A DNA stretch of 64,000 bases from Escherichia phage EC121. Positions 2,982 through 39,893 of the stretch are shown here, one piece after another. The stretch lies in sequence record NC_054909.1; one strand, given 5' to 3'. The position numbers and the translations under genes were made by a program. The stretch's first letter is position 1. Every line of letters starts with the position of its first letter. The notes beneath the pieces are model-generated. The model was not told the origin of the DNA and ran no database searches. It saw only the letters and a program-made list of their open reading frames with translations.

Positions 2982-3168
2982 TATCTAAAATGTTGAAGTT
3001 AAAAGATACAGCCCAGTCAGTGCAGACCGTAACCTTTTTAATACAATTATCTTCAACCTCTAGCGGTTCAAACCAATATTCAATAATTTCTTTATGCCCA
3101 ATATCATCTTTTACTTCGCATTCAAAATGCTGACTCATCATAACATTTTTAAATTCATCAAAAGTCAT
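2905..3168 (-). CDS. hypothetical protein (87 aa)
   Basis: ORF whose start overlaps gene 47 stop by 4 nt. Confidence 0.55.
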   Translation of the reverse strand: MTFDEFKNVMMSQHFECEVKDDIGHKEIIEYWFEPLEVEDNCIKKVTVCTDWAVSFNFNILDNDTPKSLQDMAVSCIKDAYCEVFDI

Positions 3169-4184
3169 TGTGTTGCCTCTACATATAGCTGATTCGCATA
3201 TTGAATAAGTGCTTCACGGTCAGAATCAGTGATGTCTGGAATTGCATTAATGTATTCTTCCATCAACGTCTGAAGAGATTGAACTTCAACTTCTTCACTG
3301 TCATCTGACTCGACAGAGTTATCAATCTTTGACACAACTCGTAACGAATGCACAACTTTTTCTAGTTCAGATTCGAACTTCGTCAGATTTTTGTCTACTT
3401 CAGTTACTATAACACGTACTGATAGATTTGTAAAATCTTTATAGTCAATTTTTCCCTTAAATGGATATTGAATTCGACGATGCCAGGTAGTGTTGTTTGG
3501 AATAAATTCCATTCGTTCTGTTTCTGTGTCAAACATCCAGAACCCACGAGGGTCATTCTCGTCACCTGCAGTTAGTGTCCATGGTGTCCCAATATATCTG
3601 ACGTTTGCAGCCTCAGAAATAGTATGGAAGTGACCAGACCACACTTCTTTATAAGTCTTAAGGAAATCAGGTTCAAGACCGTGAGATTTCATTCCTTTAT
3701 AAAAATAAAATCCATTCAGTTCCCAGTGACCAACACAAAAAGAAGCAGATGAAGTTTTGATGTGTTCAAGAATTTCACCAGTATTTTCTTCGCACATCCA
3801 AGGAATTAAATCAATCAAACACCCGTCAAAATCTACTGTTGTAGGCTTATCATATACTTTAACATTAGGATATTTAGCCAAAAGCTCAGTAGAGGCATTT
3901 GGATGCATTACATTTTTGTAGTGGAGATCGTGATTTCCTACAATAGTATGTAGGGTAATACCAGCACCATCAAGCATTTGAACTATTTCACGGGCAAACT
4001 CCATAGTTTTATGCGTGATCGCTTTTCGCACATCAAAAATATCACCGTATTGAATCCATACCGTAATTCCATTTTTCTTAGAATATTCTATCGCTTGCTT
4101 AATTCCATCAATTTGAATACCGCGAATCCACTCATCATCAGCTTTAACGCCTAAATGCCAATCACCTAAATTTAAAATTTTCAT
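3165..4184 (-). CDS. 47: recombination nuclease subunit gp47 (Mre11/SbcD-like phosphoesterase)
   Basis: 339 aa; calcineurin-like motifs GDWH, GDIFD, GNHD; adjacent to gene 46. Confidence 0.95.
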   Translation of the reverse strand: MKILNLGDWHLGVKADDEWIRGIQIDGIKQAIEYSKKNGITVWIQYGDIFDVRKAITHKTMEFAREIVQMLDGAGITLHTIVGNHDLHYKNVMHPNASTELLAKYPNVKVYDKPTTVDFDGCLIDLIPWMCEENTGEILEHIKTSSASFCVGHWELNGFYFYKGMKSHGLEPDFLKTYKEVWSGHFHTISEAANVRYIGTPWTLTAGDENDPRGFWMFDTETERMEFIPNNTTWHRRIQYPFKGKIDYKDFTNLSVRVIVTEVDKNLTKFESELEKVVHSLRVVSKIDNSVESDDSEEVEVQSLQTLMEEYINAIPDITDSDREALIQYANQLYVEATQ

Positions 4185-31404: not shown

Positions 31405-31878
31405 TTATTTGAACGATTTAACGTACTGAATAGAACCCTTACTATTCACGAAAGCGATTTTACCATTTTTGTTATACATGGTAGCAGTACGTTGATAACC
31501 ATAAGTTTGTTTACCAGATTGATAACCAACTAATGCAAAATTATCTTCACCCATTTTATTCTGCTTAGCGCGAATGCGTTCATGGCCATGTGCCATAAGA
31601 ACCTTAGCATCACCCGTTGCAATGGATCTACGAGTTTTTTCATCTTCAACTGTATTAACAAAGTCGTCAAATGAATCAAATTTAGCATGAGATTTATTAT
31701 ACAGTTTTCCATCTACTGCATAATTATATCCTTGTACATCCATCTCAACTTCTGTACCGTCATCCAATACAGCAGTGATTTTCTGTCCTTTTTTAAATTT
31801 CAAAAGATCAGTAAAAGATTCAGCAATAATTTGAGAATTAATAGCTGCTTCAGTAATAAATTCTTGATATGTTTTCAT
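31405..31878 (-). CDS. capsid internal protein (IPIII-like)
   Basis: N-terminal capsid targeting sequence MKTYQEFITE. Confidence 0.65.
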   Translation of the reverse strand: MKTYQEFITEAAINSQIIAESFTDLLKFKKGQKITAVLDDGTEVEMDVQGYNYAVDGKLYNKSHAKFDSFDDFVNTVEDEKTRRSIATGDAKVLMAHGHERIRAKQNKMGEDNFALVGYQSGKQTYGYQRTATMYNKNGKIAFVNSKGSIQYVKSFK

Positions 31879-31894
31879 GTGTATCCTTTAATTT

Positions 31895-32212
31895 TTATTC
31901 TTTAGGGAAGTTTTTAGAATATGCATCATAAAGCTTATTTCCAATACGGCGGAAAACTCTAGCCGCAAAACGATTTTCTGGGTTTTTAATCATGATTTGC
32001 ATCATATAAGTACCCGCGTCAGAAAGAGCTTCTTCATAGTACCCGTTAATTTCTTTAAGAGTCCTACGTTTACCACCAGGACCATCAACAGTGATTTTCC
32101 ATTTACCTGTAGAAGTGCGACTTGGCGGCTCAACTTGTTCAATCCAGATATAACCGCCTTCTACACGTTGTCCTGCAGCAGATTCTGCAATAAATTCTTT
32201 ATACGTTTTCAT
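31895..32212 (-). CDS. capsid internal protein (IPII-like)
   Basis: N-terminal capsid targeting sequence MKTYKEFIAE. Confidence 0.65.
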   Translation of the reverse strand: MKTYKEFIAESAAGQRVEGGYIWIEQVEPPSRTSTGKWKITVDGPGGKRRTLKEINGYYEEALSDAGTYMMQIMIKNPENRFAARVFRRIGNKLYDAYSKNFPKE

Positions 32213-35805: not shown

Positions 35806-36081
35806 TTATTTCATATTATTGAAATATTCTTCTGCGATTTCGTCGTTATCATGGTAAACTTTAGAAGACAATTTAACATAACCTTCAGCAGTGAACATGT
35901 TAATCACAACCTTTACAGTATACCACTGACCGTCTTCATTGCCCATTACCGCATAAGTTTCAAACATCGGATGATCAGGACCGATAACTTTAATATCATT
36001 CACTGTACGACCGAAATCTTCTGAAACACATTTCATAAAGAAGTTGAACAGTTCGCCGTAATTATCCATTTCGTTCTCCAA
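35806..36081 (-). CDS. hypothetical acidic protein (91 aa)
   Basis: ORF downstream of promoter 36113..36141. Confidence 0.55.
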   Translation of the reverse strand: MENEMDNYGELFNFFMKCVSEDFGRTVNDIKVIGPDHPMFETYAVMGNEDGQWYTVKVVINMFTAEGYVKLSSKVYHDNDEIAEEYFNNMK

Positions 36082-36112
36082 GTTGTTTTCTGTATCAGTA
36101 GTTGATAGTTGT

Positions 36113-36141
36113 ATAGTACCATGGAAGAACAGGGATGTAAA
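36113..36141 (-). promoter_or_regulatory. sigma70-type early promoter
   Basis: GTTTACA -35, 17-nt spacer, TACTAT -10, CTATCAACT box. Confidence 0.45.
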
Positions 36142-36273
36142 CAGTTTTGTGAAAAAATTTTTAAAAAGTTTTGGGGAATTCTAGGGCAGGGAGGGGAAAT
36201 CAAAGGATAGGATAATATATTATAAAGGGTAGAAACTAAATGATGTCTAGAGAGGCCTGGAAAGGCCTAGATA

Positions 36274-36303
36274 CCAAAAAGCCCCAACCTTTCGGCTGGG
36301 GCT
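36274..36303 (-). terminator. intrinsic terminator downstream of 36311..36784 gene
   Basis: hairpin AGCCCCAACC..GGCTGGGGCT followed by TTTTTGG on minus strand. Confidence 0.55.
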
Positions 36304-36310
36304 AAGAATG

Positions 36311-36784
36311 TTATTTGATTTGTTTAGCAGACCAAATGCGGTCTTTAATAATTTTTTGGATGTCTTCAACATACCCAAGAGAGTGAGCATGTGGGTTATC
36401 TTTGAAACTATAAGCACGAGCCAGTTTTTGGCCTTCAGTTTTGATTACTAAAAGCTCTTTAAGAATAGCTTCATATTTGGAGATAATTCCTTTAACAATA
36501 TTTTTCTCTTGTGCGACTTTAGGATCTGCTTTAGGAGCAGGTTTACCTGAAGCCTTTGCAAAAGCAGCGCCAGTAGCAACTAAACTTTTCCAGGCCATAC
36601 TAACTGCATTTCCCGTAAATCCTTCCGCTTTCATGTCGCGTGCGAACTGGAATCGCGATTCATCAGAAGCATCTTTGTAAGAATATTTACCCGCTGCAAT
36701 GGCTGCTTTTGCGACAGCTTGAATTTCGGTGCTAGATGCTTCATTTAACACCGCTTCATTTAAAAATTGAGTATATGATTTCAT
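36311..36784 (-). CDS. putative capsid-targeted internal protein (157 aa)
   Basis: N-terminus MKSYTQFLNE resembles capsid targeting sequence with LxE cleavage motif; own late promoter. Confidence 0.6.
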   Translation of the reverse strand: MKSYTQFLNEAVLNEASSTEIQAVAKAAIAAGKYSYKDASDESRFQFARDMKAEGFTGNAVSMAWKSLVATGAAFAKASGKPAPKADPKVAQEKNIVKGIISKYEAILKELLVIKTEGQKLARAYSFKDNPHAHSLGYVEDIQKIIKDRIWSAKQIK

Positions 36785-36824
36785 CTTATTTCCTGTTTTA
36801 ATTCGTGGTTTTAATATACTACTA

Positions 36825-36832
36825 TATTTATA
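36825..36832 (-). promoter_or_regulatory. late promoter box TATAAATA
   Basis: plus-strand TATTTATA about 40 nt upstream of ATG at 36784. Confidence 0.45.
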
Positions 36833-36862
36833 CCAAAAAGCCCCAACCTTTCAGTCGGGGCT
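36833..36862 (-). terminator. intrinsic terminator, near-identical copy of 36274..36303
   Basis: hairpin GCCCCAACC..GTCGGGGC followed by TTTTTGG on minus strand. Confidence 0.55.
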
Positions 36863-37169
36863 AAGCCTTGCGGCAACCTTGTCGGGGTTCCACCTGCTAA
36901 GGCAAGTGTTTGTACGAAACGCCGGGATTCGAACCCGGTTATTAAGCAGTTGACGCTACTCAATATTTTTAAAAGGCCATATCTCGACCATATCCGAACG
37001 TTCCGTCAAAAACGCTACTCGGTTTACGGCAAAGATATTTCCTCGAATCGATAATTCGGTGCGCCGTTTCTGCTGTGATAGTAAAGAGCCAGAACACAGT
37101 AAAACTGTGGGAGGAAACTATACTCCAGGGAACATCAGTCCGACGACTTACCGGTAGCGACCCGGTTTC

Positions 37170-37520
37170 TTAGTATTCTTTTAAAGCATCAACCTGTTCA
37201 CGACGTTTACGCCATAAATCAATTACTTCATACGCAGATTCAGCATTTCGAATTGGACGGCATTTATATAAAGACTTGTGATTTTGATATTGTGTAGATA
37301 ACGGAATTTTATCTAAAAGGTCTTTACGTTCAAAATATTCGTAACCATCTAAACCAAATGAACGATTTTTGAGAAATTGCCAATGACCAAATTCGTTTTC
37401 GACATAAACATAATCTGCATGCTGATAAAGCAAATTAATTACACGTTCAGAAATAACAGTATCATTATGATTAAAATAGAATGTTAAATCATGAACTACT
37501 AAATAAACATTACCTTTCAT
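37170..37520 (-). CDS. hypothetical protein (116 aa) inside tRNA region
   Basis: ATG 18 nt downstream of tRNA-Arg with GAGG RBS. Confidence 0.55.
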   Translation of the reverse strand: MKGNVYLVVHDLTFYFNHNDTVISERVINLLYQHADYVYVENEFGHWQFLKNRSFGLDGYEYFERKDLLDKIPLSTQYQNHKSLYKCRPIRNAESAYEVIDLWRKRREQVDALKEY

Positions 37521-37538: not shown

Positions 37539-37614
37539 TGGTCGAGGCAGTAGGGATCGAACCTACGACCCAGGACTTAGAAGGTCCTTGCTCTTCCTTC
37601 TGAGCTATGCCCCG
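37539..37614 (-). tRNA. tRNA-Arg (anticodon TCT), CCA encoded
   Basis: manual cloverleaf: acceptor CGGGGCA/TGCCTCG, anticodon loop CTTCTAA, T-arm GTAGG-TTCGATC-CCTAC. Confidence 0.75.
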
Positions 37615-37618
37615 TAAT

Positions 37619-37694
37619 TGGGGTGACCGATGGGAGTCGAACCCATGACTACGAGAATCACAATCTCGAGTTCTACCAACTGAACTACGGCCAC
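37619..37694 (-). tRNA. tRNA-His (anticodon GTG), CCA encoded, no encoded G-1
   Basis: acceptor GTGGCCG/CGGTCAC, discriminator C, anticodon stem CGAGA/TCTCG loop TTGTGAT. Confidence 0.65.
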
Positions 37695-37808
37695 ATTAAT
37701 ACCTACTCCAACAATCATGATGTCTTCACACGAAATTAAGAGAAGAGTGATCAGTTCAACCCCTATAATCGCGTCAAGTAGATATTAATGTGACAGTTGT
37801 CACAAATT

Positions 37809-37883
37809 TGGCGGACGTGATAGGATTCGAACCTATAACCAATCGCTTAACAGGCGATCGCTCTGCCATTGAGCTACACATCC
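37809..37883 (-). tRNA. tRNA-Asn (anticodon GTT), CCA encoded
   Basis: acceptor GGATGTG/CACGTCC, anticodon loop CTGTTAA, T-loop TTCGAAT. Confidence 0.7.
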
Positions 37884-37887
37884 AAAT

Positions 37888-37974
37888 TGGTGGGGAGTGA
37901 TGGAGTCGAACCACCCGAGTCGCAATGACAATGAATTTACAGTCCACACCGCTACCTCTACGGGATAACTCCCC
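37888..37974 (-). tRNA. tRNA-Tyr (anticodon GTA), long variable arm, CCA encoded
   Basis: acceptor GGGGAGT/ACTCCCC, anticodon loop CTGTAAA, 87 nt type II. Confidence 0.6.
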
Positions 37975-37981
37975 CTTAATT

Positions 37982-38056
37982 TGGTGGCCCTGGGTGGAAT
38001 TGAACCACCATCTGGCGATTATGAGTCGCTTGCTTGAACCTTCCAGCTACAGGGCC
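37982..38056 (-). tRNA. tRNA with CAT anticodon (Ile-lysidine type or Met), CCA encoded
   Basis: acceptor GGCCCTG/CAGGGCC, anticodon arm CGACTCATAATCGC as in Ile2-type tRNAs. Confidence 0.7.
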
Positions 38057-38057
38057 T

Positions 38058-38133
38058 TGGTGCTGATTGACGGAATCGAACCGCCGACATCCTCATTACA
38101 AGTGAGGTGCTCTACCTACTGAGCTAAATCAGC
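38058..38133 (-). tRNA. tRNA-Thr (anticodon TGT), CCA encoded
   Basis: acceptor GCTGATT/AATCAGC, anticodon stem CCTCA/TGAGG loop CTTGTAA. Confidence 0.75.
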
Positions 38134-38138
38134 AAAAC

Positions 38139-38228
38139 TGGCGGAGGCGATAGGATTTGAACCTATGAGTCGCCGGAGCGACTGCCGGTTTTCAAGACCG
38201 GTGCATTAAACCACTCTGCCACGCCTCC
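38139..38228 (-). tRNA. tRNA-Ser (anticodon TGA), long variable arm, CCA encoded
   Basis: acceptor GGAGGCG/CGCCTCC, anticodon stem CCGGT/ACCGG loop CTTGAAA, 90 nt. Confidence 0.75.
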
Positions 38229-38230
38229 AG

Positions 38231-38304
38231 TCTCCATACAAGGATTTGAACCTACGACATTCTGCTCCCAAAGCAGACGCTCTACCAAACTGAGCTACAC
38301 GGAG
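38231..38304 (-). tRNA. tRNA-Pro (anticodon TGG), no encoded CCA, 2 nt from tRNA-Ser
   Basis: anticodon stem TCTGC/GCAGA loop TTTGGGA; acceptor CTCCGTG/TATGGAG with wobble pairs. Confidence 0.65.
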
Positions 38305-38314
38305 TAAATTAAAT

Positions 38315-38388
<74 letters not shown>

Positions 38389-38393
38389 AAATT

Positions 38394-38480
38394 TGGTGCG
38401 AGAAGTGGGACTCGAACCCACAAGGAAATAATTCCGCAGCATTTTAAGTGCTGTGCCTTTACCAATTTGACCATTCTCGC
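38394..38480 (-). tRNA. tRNA-Leu (anticodon TAA), long variable arm, CCA encoded
   Basis: acceptor GCGAGAA/TTCTCGC, anticodon stem CAGCA/TGCTG loop CTTAAAA. Confidence 0.75.
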
Positions 38481-38481
38481 G

Positions 38482-38554
38482 CTGGGAATAAAGGACTCGA
38501 ACCTTTGCATCTAGCAGTCAAAGTGCTATGCCTTACCAACTTGGCTAATTCCCA
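38482..38554 (-). tRNA. tRNA-Gln (anticodon TTG), no encoded CCA, 1 nt from tRNA-Leu
   Basis: acceptor TGGGAAT/ATTCCCA, anticodon stem TAGCA/TGCTA loop CTTTGAC. Confidence 0.7.
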
Positions 38555-38941: not shown

Positions 38942-39346
38942 TTAACCTTTATCAACAATAGTATGTGTATGGGCATTTACGATTTGCCACCAGTCAAAAC
39001 TATCGCCAAATCGTTTTGATTTATTGTCTTCAATAATTTGGCGTAATTCATCTTCTGTTTCAGCATACGCAATCAAATCATCATATCCACCGCAAGGATA
39101 GTAATTATCGCCTGCGAACAAAAGAAAATTTACTTTAGATGGGTCTACATAATAATGCTCTTTAGGATATTTAGTTCCTTTCCAATCAGTTACTTCAACA
39201 TAACAATAAGAAAATCCATTTTTACTTTCAACCCAACTCCACGCTTCAAAAGGAGTATTAAAAACTCTATCAGGTATTAAATTACCTTCAAAATGAGAAG
39301 GATTTGCATAATCCCCAGCATAAACATAATATTCGTTAATATTCAT
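38942..39346 (-). CDS. hypothetical aromatic-rich protein (134 aa)
   Basis: ORF in variable ipI-locus. Confidence 0.55.
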   Translation of the reverse strand: MNINEYYVYAGDYANPSHFEGNLIPDRVFNTPFEAWSWVESKNGFSYCYVEVTDWKGTKYPKEHYYVDPSKVNFLLFAGDNYYPCGGYDDLIAYAETEDELRQIIEDNKSKRFGDSFDWWQIVNAHTHTIVDKG

Positions 39347-39608: not shown

Positions 39609-39893
39609 TTACAAAAGATTTTTAGCAATAATTTTAAGCTGAGCTACTGAAATATGCTTGGCTTTAAACAAAGCAGTTTCTTCAGCAGGGGAGATAATGA
39701 TTGTGGCACCATCTTTCTTAGCGGACCATCCATCACCCAGGTAAACAGTACCTTTAACTTCTTCACCATCAACCAGGCTAATCATCGGTTTACCTTCACG
39801 TCCTTTGTTTGCTTTAATAACTTCAGAAGTAAGGGTCGCTTCAGTCAAAGTAGAAGCGTTAGTGGTTGAAGTGAATTCTTGATAAGTTTTCAT
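39609..39893 (-). CDS. ipI: internal protein I (capsid-packaged, injected)
   Basis: 94 aa; capsid targeting sequence MKTYQEF; position between tRNAs and 57B as in T4. Confidence 0.75.
   Translation of the reverse strand: MKTYQEFTSTTNASTLTEATLTSEVIKANKGREGKPMISLVDGEEVKGTVYLGDGWSAKKDGATIIISPAEETALFKAKHISVAQLKIIAKNLL

Follow-up and report, generated by a model that had tools for sequence, protein, structure and literature searches.

In this study, we found that gp130 of Escherichia phage EC121 is probably, judging from its sequence and genomic setting, an undescribed injected protein encoded at a third, polymorphic internal-protein (Ip) locus of T4-like phages. The chain of events up to packaging, in which gp130 is expressed late, directed by a capsid targeting sequence (CTS) and packaged into the capsid, appears to us rather likely. 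The window denotes throughout the whole 64,000-nucleotide stretch of EC121 DNA that was analysed (NC_054909.1). It comes from a Tequatrovirus (T4-like) genome, and the sequences of RB51 and RB68 share 98.8% identity with the 661 bases around the cassette described here.

The gp130 gene (36311..36784, minus strand) encodes a protein of 157 residues with a mass of 17.2 kDa, a pI of 9.5, 21 Lys and 4 Arg, which starts with MKSYTQFLNEAVLNEASSTE, its first ten residues being MKSYTQFLNE. It belongs to phrog_2280, labelled by PHROG as function unknown, and its ortholog in RB51 is RB32ORF132c. The gene order of the window on the minus strand is as in T4, namely 57B, ipI, trna.4-.2, the tRNA cluster, rnaD, rnaC, e.8, e.6, e.5 ... 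e and the ipII/III-type genes, with the gp130 gene sitting between e.8 and rnaC. About 750 nt separate it from the 11-gene tRNA cluster (37539-38554), and this interval holds rnaC (36913-37051; 97.8% identity to T4), rnaD (37058-37170; 79% identity) and a 116-residue ORF (37170..37520, minus strand; phrog_3355) between rnaD and tRNA-Arg, which resembles RB51ncORF141c and RB69ORF150c. As Rfam holds no model for either rnaC or rnaD, both were mapped by BLASTN to T4. The distance from the gp130 gene is 4.1 kb to the ipII/ipIII-type locus (31405-32212) and 2.8 kb to the true ipI (39609-39893). Thus the initial annotation, made from the letters of the window, was right in placing the gene beside the tRNA cluster and away from both the ipII/ipIII-like genes and ipI, and in reading a product of 157 residues that begins with MKSYTQFLNE and has an L-x-E motif, here L-N-E at residues 8–10, ending at residue 10.

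At both ends of the gene lies a copy of a 36-nt direct repeat, and the two copies are 92% identical. Both were scored as minus-strand intrinsic terminators, in which a G+C-rich stem of 10 bp is capped by a GAAA loop and followed by a T run; two matches to their shared 28-nt core were obtained in no shuffle of the window. The upstream copy (36830..36865, stem 36862..36839, –17.7 kcal/mol) is the intrinsic terminator of the tRNA-rnaD-rnaC transcription unit. The downstream copy (36271..36306, stem 36303..36280, –20.6 kcal/mol) starts 5 nt past the stop codon and ends the cassette. Directly abutting the T run of the upstream terminator is the octamer TATAAATA (36825..36832, minus strand), which corresponds to the T4 late-promoter consensus; the last three bases of the terminator, TAT, are also the first three of this late box, and the box ends 40 nt ahead of the ATG. 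The intervening 5' leader (36785..36824, minus strand) is A/T-rich and unstructured, with a folding energy of 0 kcal/mol, and carries the Shine-Dalgarno sequence AGGAAA at 36789..36794. In the A+T-rich window the octamer shows no enrichment (12 occurrences against 10.5 expected), so that TATAAATA alone proves nothing; what gives this putative promoter weight is where it lies and that it is conserved among relatives. A search for a sigma-70-type promoter upstream of the gene on the minus strand found none. A candidate MotA-type middle promoter, formed by GCTTT in the terminator tail followed by TATAGT, appears doubtful, its spacing being too short by eye. In T4 and in the window, the canonical ip genes lie directly behind early promoters and have no TATAAATA within 90 nt; the predicted regulation of the gp130 gene therefore differs from that of the type members.

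The same layout was found in other phages. Among 12 related loci, the order of terminator, late box, about 40 nt, ATG and terminator recurs in most, from Tequatrovirus through Mosigvirus to Jiaodavirus. A perfect TATAAATA occupies the same position in 8 of the 12, including the Klebsiella Jiaodavirus locus, where the terminator sequence differs, and a variant matching 7 of the 8 bases (AATAAATA or CATAAATA) was seen in three more; the locus of Yersinia phage fHe-Yen9-01 has no late box. The initial annotation had described two near-identical 30-nt terminators bracketing a self-contained, late-promoter-driven gene with its own late box at 36825..36832. The box is indeed there on the minus strand, and the self-contained cassette is borne out by the recurrence of the layout in other genera and by the search for sigma-70-type promoters; both minus-strand terminators were likewise confirmed, their length being corrected slightly upward, to 36 nt at 92% identity. 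The repeats themselves had already been noted in the GenBank record of RB51 ("flanked by 34 bp imperfect direct repeat"), in which the product is called hypothetical.

Comparison of the locus across T4-like genomes, which the initial annotation had suggested, revealed that the cassette is absent from T2, T4 and T6. In all three the empty site is precise, a single terminator copy lying between the same left and right flanks as in the window; in T4, no gene separates e.8 from rnaC. In the T4 gap, positions 5-236 correspond to 36074-36305 of the window and positions 202-284 to 36830-36912; the 35-nt overlap (202-236) is the repeat, which maps to both copies. Given this overlap, T4 and the window differ by exactly one 559-bp unit comprising the late box, the leader, the gene and one terminator copy. 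Such a one-unit difference would be the footprint expected of homologous recombination between the repeats. As T2, T4 and T6 have an exact empty site, the gp130 gene is not a universal ordinary early gene. The fraction of carriers was estimated roughly, from 466 full-length protein matches against 595-754 records holding the neighbouring locus. Counting empty sites with a 221-bp T4 junction query was uninformative, the pieces being joined across the 559-bp insertion.

In ZN18, HP3, U115, D5505 and others, about 670 extra bases between the gp130-type gene and e.8 make up a second cassette, which was found in 165 phage records. On a contig of the Yersinia phage ZN18 type it spans positions 3044-3700 (contig L007), corresponding to about 36240-36270 of the window. 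Its protein of 187 residues starts with MKTYAEFLTEAAK (MKTYAEFLTE), and the gene has a AATAAATA box before it and its own terminator after it. This protein falls into the same PHROG as gp130 (2e-53), and BLASTP aligns it to gp130 in the leader only. Depending on the phage, the site downstream of rnaC thus carries no CTS-tagged, putatively late cassette, one or two of them, and it behaves as a third Ip locus; two Ip loci are described in the literature (PMC12373910).

The N-terminus of gp130 agrees with what is known of capsid targeting in T4. In the CTS of IPIII, targeting is set by residues 4 and 7 (Y4 and F7) and processing by residues 8 and 10; the protease gp21 cuts after L/I-x-E, and Asp at position 10 prevents cleavage (reviewed in PMC9026906). 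At the level of sequence, gp130 has suitable residues at all four mapped positions (Y4, F7, L8 and E10). Codons 1-15 (36740..36784, minus strand) encode a predicted propeptide, MKSYTQFLNE/AVLNE/A, in which residues 1-10 form the CTS and two gp21-type L-x-E sites are present: L8-N9-E10 followed by A11, and L13-N14-E15 followed by A16. Given the second L-N-E site, mature gp130 may begin after E15 instead of E10. Mature gp130 is predicted to start with AVLNEASSTEIQAVAK if cut after E10, or with ASSTEIQAVAK if cut after E15.

For an unbiased ranking, every Met-started frame of the window with 40 codons or more (604 in total) was scored by matching its first ten residues to MKTYQEFIAE. The gp130 N-terminus ranks fourth of the 604 with a score of 30 (mean –1.8, sd 7.3), and the next frame scores 20. 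The three frames ranked above it are the three canonical Ip-locus genes of the window: 31895..32212 (MKTYKEFIAE) and 31405..31878 (MKTYQEFITE; DUF7412/Ip4), each with a score of 47, and 39609..39893 (MKTYQEFTST; score 37), the true IPI (PF11634). The gp130 leader is identical to the T4 CTS at only 5 of 10 residues, and 20-22 of the 30 nucleotides encoding it match the Ip genes at 31878 and 32212. The frame at 31895..32212 on the minus strand, within the ipII/ipIII locus, is an ORF of 105 residues with a perfect-type CTS (MKTYKEFIAES), assigned to phrog_3966 with 'unknown function' and to none of the Pfam families; probably it, too, is an internal protein that has been under-annotated. The IPI gene at 39609..39893, also on the minus strand, matches PF11634 at E = 3.5e-51 and has an early promoter directly upstream. 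The window has a true IPI; a classical GmrSD inhibitor therefore coexists there with the Ip4-type gene (DUF7412, 31405..31878) and gp130.

Profile searches of gp130 against Pfam, NCBIfam and PDB yielded only noise-level matches. In particular, it matched neither PF11634 nor DUF7412, to which the IPI and Ip4 genes of the window match at 3.5e-51 and 5.7e-96, respectively. When 5.8 billion proteins were searched by word index and 1.84 billion representatives were scanned exhaustively with HMMER, the only relatives of gp130 came from T4-like phages. The HMMER list also contained three large repeat proteins (P0017-P0019), which were discarded as spurious, matching only through a repeated AAGSYSYKA-like motif. 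In the phage collection, a homolog is present in 510 records, full-length in 466 of them; homologs from Mosigvirus share about 75% identity with gp130, and those from Klebsiella Jiaodavirus about 50% over the N-terminal half. Pairwise dN/dS values of gp130 against four homologs range from 0.04 to 0.11, and the gene is under purifying selection.

Sequence comparison within the family revealed that the leader is kept across genera, down to about 40% identity and despite exchange of the C-terminal module. Family leaders include MKSYAQFLNE, MKTYNEFLNE, MKTYNEFLMTE, MKSYAEFLTE, MLEYSEFLKE, MKFKEFLAE, MLKFNEFLAE and MITFNDILAE. CTS positions 4, 7, 8 and 10 are kept in the family while neighbouring positions vary, and either L-x-E or L-x-x-E is kept in every homolog examined. 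Moreover, a Klebsiella protein annotated as an internal virion protein (Ip4-type) starts with MKTYQEFLNES, which is identical at 10 of 11 residues to the family leader MKTYNEFLNES.

Some members of the family are truncated. One from Shigella phage SfPhi01 (P0006, 111 residues) and another of 108 residues (P0014) diverge after ...AQEK at an A run, equivalent to about 36495-36510 of the window, and share one out-of-frame tail (...SPNMKLxLKSF); both look like frameshift pseudogenes. Since such frameshifted, truncated copies exist, the gp130 gene is dispensable in some lineages.

In the AlphaFold model of gp130 (pLDDT 76.7), the leader is loosely ordered, residues 18-71 form a three-helix bundle, and a disordered linker leads to a long helical hairpin (residues 88-154). 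The corresponding segments of the gene are as follows. The N-terminal three-helix, HTH-like domain (residues 16-78; 36551..36739, minus strand), modelled with a pLDDT of 94, is the conserved part common to all family members. It is joined by a disordered Lys/Pro/Ala-rich linker, SGKPAPKADPKVAQEK (residues 79-93; 36506..36550, minus strand; pLDDT about 54), to the C-terminal helical hairpin (residues 94-157; 36314..36505, minus strand), an exchangeable module: in the Klebsiella and Yersinia homologs, the C-terminal half is unrelated to that of gp130. Comparing the folds gave only generic helical and HTH-like matches, and nothing among them points to anti-defence activity. The predicted mature gp130 has a pI of 9.6, and the other Ips of the window have values of 9.0-9.6.

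Evidence from virions is available for a close relative. The region of Yersinia phage fD1 is 97.4% identical to the window, and the ortholog g140 was detected as particle-associated by LC-MS/MS at the strict threshold (PMC8309999, Table S3). The same preparation yielded 113-137 phage proteins, including lysozyme, DenV, NudE, e.5 and e.6, together with 672 host proteins (PMC8309999). Because these proteins also scored, the fD1 proteome is weak evidence for a location in the capsid. It establishes that the gp130 ortholog is translated and co-purifies with particles, and thereby speaks for its expression more than for its location.

On the basis of these features, we propose a putative model for the gp130 cassette. 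The 559-bp unit would form an autonomous cassette for a late gene, placed within the terminator at the end of the tRNA-rnaD-rnaC unit. Its upstream terminator would shield the gp130 gene from early and tRNA transcription, and the gp55-dependent late promoter TATAAATA would drive the gene during prohead construction. MKSYTQFLNE, acting as a CTS, would dock gp130 onto the scaffolding core of the prohead. Afterwards, the prohead protease gp21 would cut after E10 and probably after E15, yielding a mature protein of about 15.4 kDa that is basic and rich in Lys. This protein would stay with the packaged DNA and enter the next host together with it. There it would most likely neutralise a host defence acting on the incoming DNA, by analogy with Ip1, Ip2 and Ip3. 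The duplicated 36-nt terminators, in turn, would supply the homology for precise loss of the unit, as in T2, T4 and T6, or for its gain. The anti-defence role is proposed on the strength of the Ip1-3 analogy and the arms-race-like distribution of the gene, and we hold it tentatively, at somewhat less than an even chance.

Packaging of gp130 by means of its CTS might instead serve an end other than anti-defence. The protein could be a histone-like structural component that offsets the charge of the DNA or helps in packaging and ejection, or a minor constituent of the prohead core that is degraded and not injected. The basic, Lys-rich composition of gp130, its Lys/Pro/Ala-rich linker and its HTH-like domain would all suit such a role; contact with packaged DNA has been seen only for the lysines of internal proteins (PMC3012670), and similarity to known inhibitors was not found in the Pfam, NCBIfam and PDB searches. 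However, T2, T4 and T6 do without the gene and some phages carry it with a frameshift, so gp130 cannot be needed for head function. Its polymorphic, cassette-borne distribution and the swapping of its C-terminal module are rather the pattern expected of arms-race genes like Ip1-3, and we regard a purely structural role as unlikely.

It is also conceivable that gp130 is an ordinary late cytoplasmic protein whose CTS-like N-terminus has ceased to direct packaging. The leader would then be either a relic of recombination, its conserved DNA having linked shuffled genes, or a region that favours the initiation of translation. Exchange of leaders at the DNA level is plausible, given the 20-22 of 30 nucleotides shared with other ip genes, and the modest identity to the T4 CTS (5 of 10 residues), the non-specific fD1 proteome and a regulation unlike that of canonical ip genes would fit such an origin. 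A relic would be expected to decay, yet positions 4, 7, 8 and 10 have been kept across genera, down to about 40% identity; the low dN/dS and the even closer CTS of the adjacent cassette in relatives also argue against it, and we consider this explanation improbable. That the gene is a spurious ORF which came by chance to lie between duplicated terminators, a reading in line with the lack of enrichment of TATAAATA in the window, is refuted by the approximately 470 records of full-length homologs, the dN/dS of 0.04-0.11, the detection of ortholog peptides and the N-domain pLDDT of 94, which leave it a negligible probability. Our preferred reading hence remains that of a CTS-directed, packaged protein encoded by a late cassette.

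Compared with the internal proteins of T4, namely IPII and IPIII (CTS MKTYQEFIAE) and IPI (MKTFKEFTST...TE), gp130 shares Y/F at position 4, F7 and L/I-x-E at positions 8-10, followed by Ala. It is likewise predicted to be a small basic mature protein, encoded by a non-essential gene that is polymorphic among close relatives, and its mature part is unrelated to those of other Ips. In contrast, the gp130 gene is located downstream of rnaC, not beside e/denV or 57B as the known Ip loci are, and has a late box only, with no adjacent early promoter. The position of the known loci describes these members and is not demanded by the mechanism. The leader differs too, being 5/10 identical and carrying a duplicated cleavage site, and packaging, cleavage and injection are here predictions from sequence. 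The structure of IPI* was reportedly described by Rifat et al. in 2008. IPI* adopts a two-sheet fold (PMC3012670), whereas the gp130 model consists of a three-helix bundle and a helical hairpin.

Ip1, Ip2 and Ip3 each block a specific GmrSD type IV restriction enzyme (Silas et al. 2025, PMC12373910). By analogy, gp130 would be expected to follow the same logic, that of a pre-made protein delivered with the DNA ahead of phage expression and diversified by host-phage conflict. The supplements of Silas et al. contain no sequence matching gp130.

The arrangement of the cassette is reminiscent of the PeSL cassettes of RB49 and phi1 (Arbiol, Comeau and Krisch 2010, PMC2839356), in which an accessory ORF also lies between repeated regulatory elements with a GGGG...CCCC stem-loop terminator. 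In both cases the empty site of a sibling, here T2, T4 and T6, holds a single element, implying that homologous recombination between the repeats has excised or inserted the unit. The two differ in that PeSLs carry a strong sigma-70-like early promoter and repeats of about 100 nt, versus the late TATAAATA box and the 36-nt repeat found here. Similarly, the 'morons' of lambdoid phages, units of promoter, gene and terminator, are autonomous accessory genes inserted between two conserved genes. Unlike in morons, the flanking repeats of the gp130 cassette can themselves mediate gain or loss, and its product is apparently addressed to the virion instead of being expressed from a prophage. One may go further and picture the site downstream of rnaC as an integron-like Ip hotspot, in which terminator and late-promoter modules act as linkers for the shuffling of CTS-tagged cassettes and the phrog_2280 proteins are injected inhibitors of a defence other than GmrSD variants; this extended scheme is doubtful at present.

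To our knowledge, only the internal proteins among those of T4 are already in the host when expression of phage genes begins. If gp130 is packaged and injected, it would represent a new Ip family, and there would be a third locus in which anti-defence functions can be sought. T4, which lacks the gp130 gene and could receive it, provides a natural test, and the late-promoter and terminator modules would, if the model is true, be portable borders of cassettes. Carriers of the gene include therapy isolates and phages from O157 hosts (RB51, AR1, PP01, HP3 and fD1). Hundreds of genomes already list the gene as hypothetical, and its repeats had been noted by the annotators of RB51. The family probably stayed "hypothetical" because it is absent from the laboratory phages T2, T4 and T6. 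A literature search, which did not cover Repoila et al. 1994 (PMC395341), found no paper that recognises a CTS tag in the gp130 family or treats the site as an Ip locus; searches on RB32ORF132c and on Ip4/Ip5 likewise found nothing.

Several further observations concern the neighbourhood of the cassette. A protein of 94 residues encoded on a 2.9-kb metagenome contig (P0013) is chimeric: its N-terminal part resembles the trna.3-like ORF of the window (38942..39346; LLFAGDNYYP.GGY.DLIA), and its last 31 residues equal the C-terminus of the gp130 family (NPHAHSLEYVEDIQKIIKDRIWSAKQIK; 36311..36400 of the window). This chimera suggests that some phage has deleted the whole tRNA/rnaC-D region. At the site of the 116-residue ORF, the window contrasts with T4, in which rnaD directly abuts tRNA-Arg. 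The tRNA cluster itself (37539..38554, minus strand), with its 11 genes, includes tRNAs for His, Asn, Tyr and Met beyond the T4 set and lacks segB, and a stretch of 114 nt (37695..37808) between tRNA-His and tRNA-Asn carries no tRNA call.
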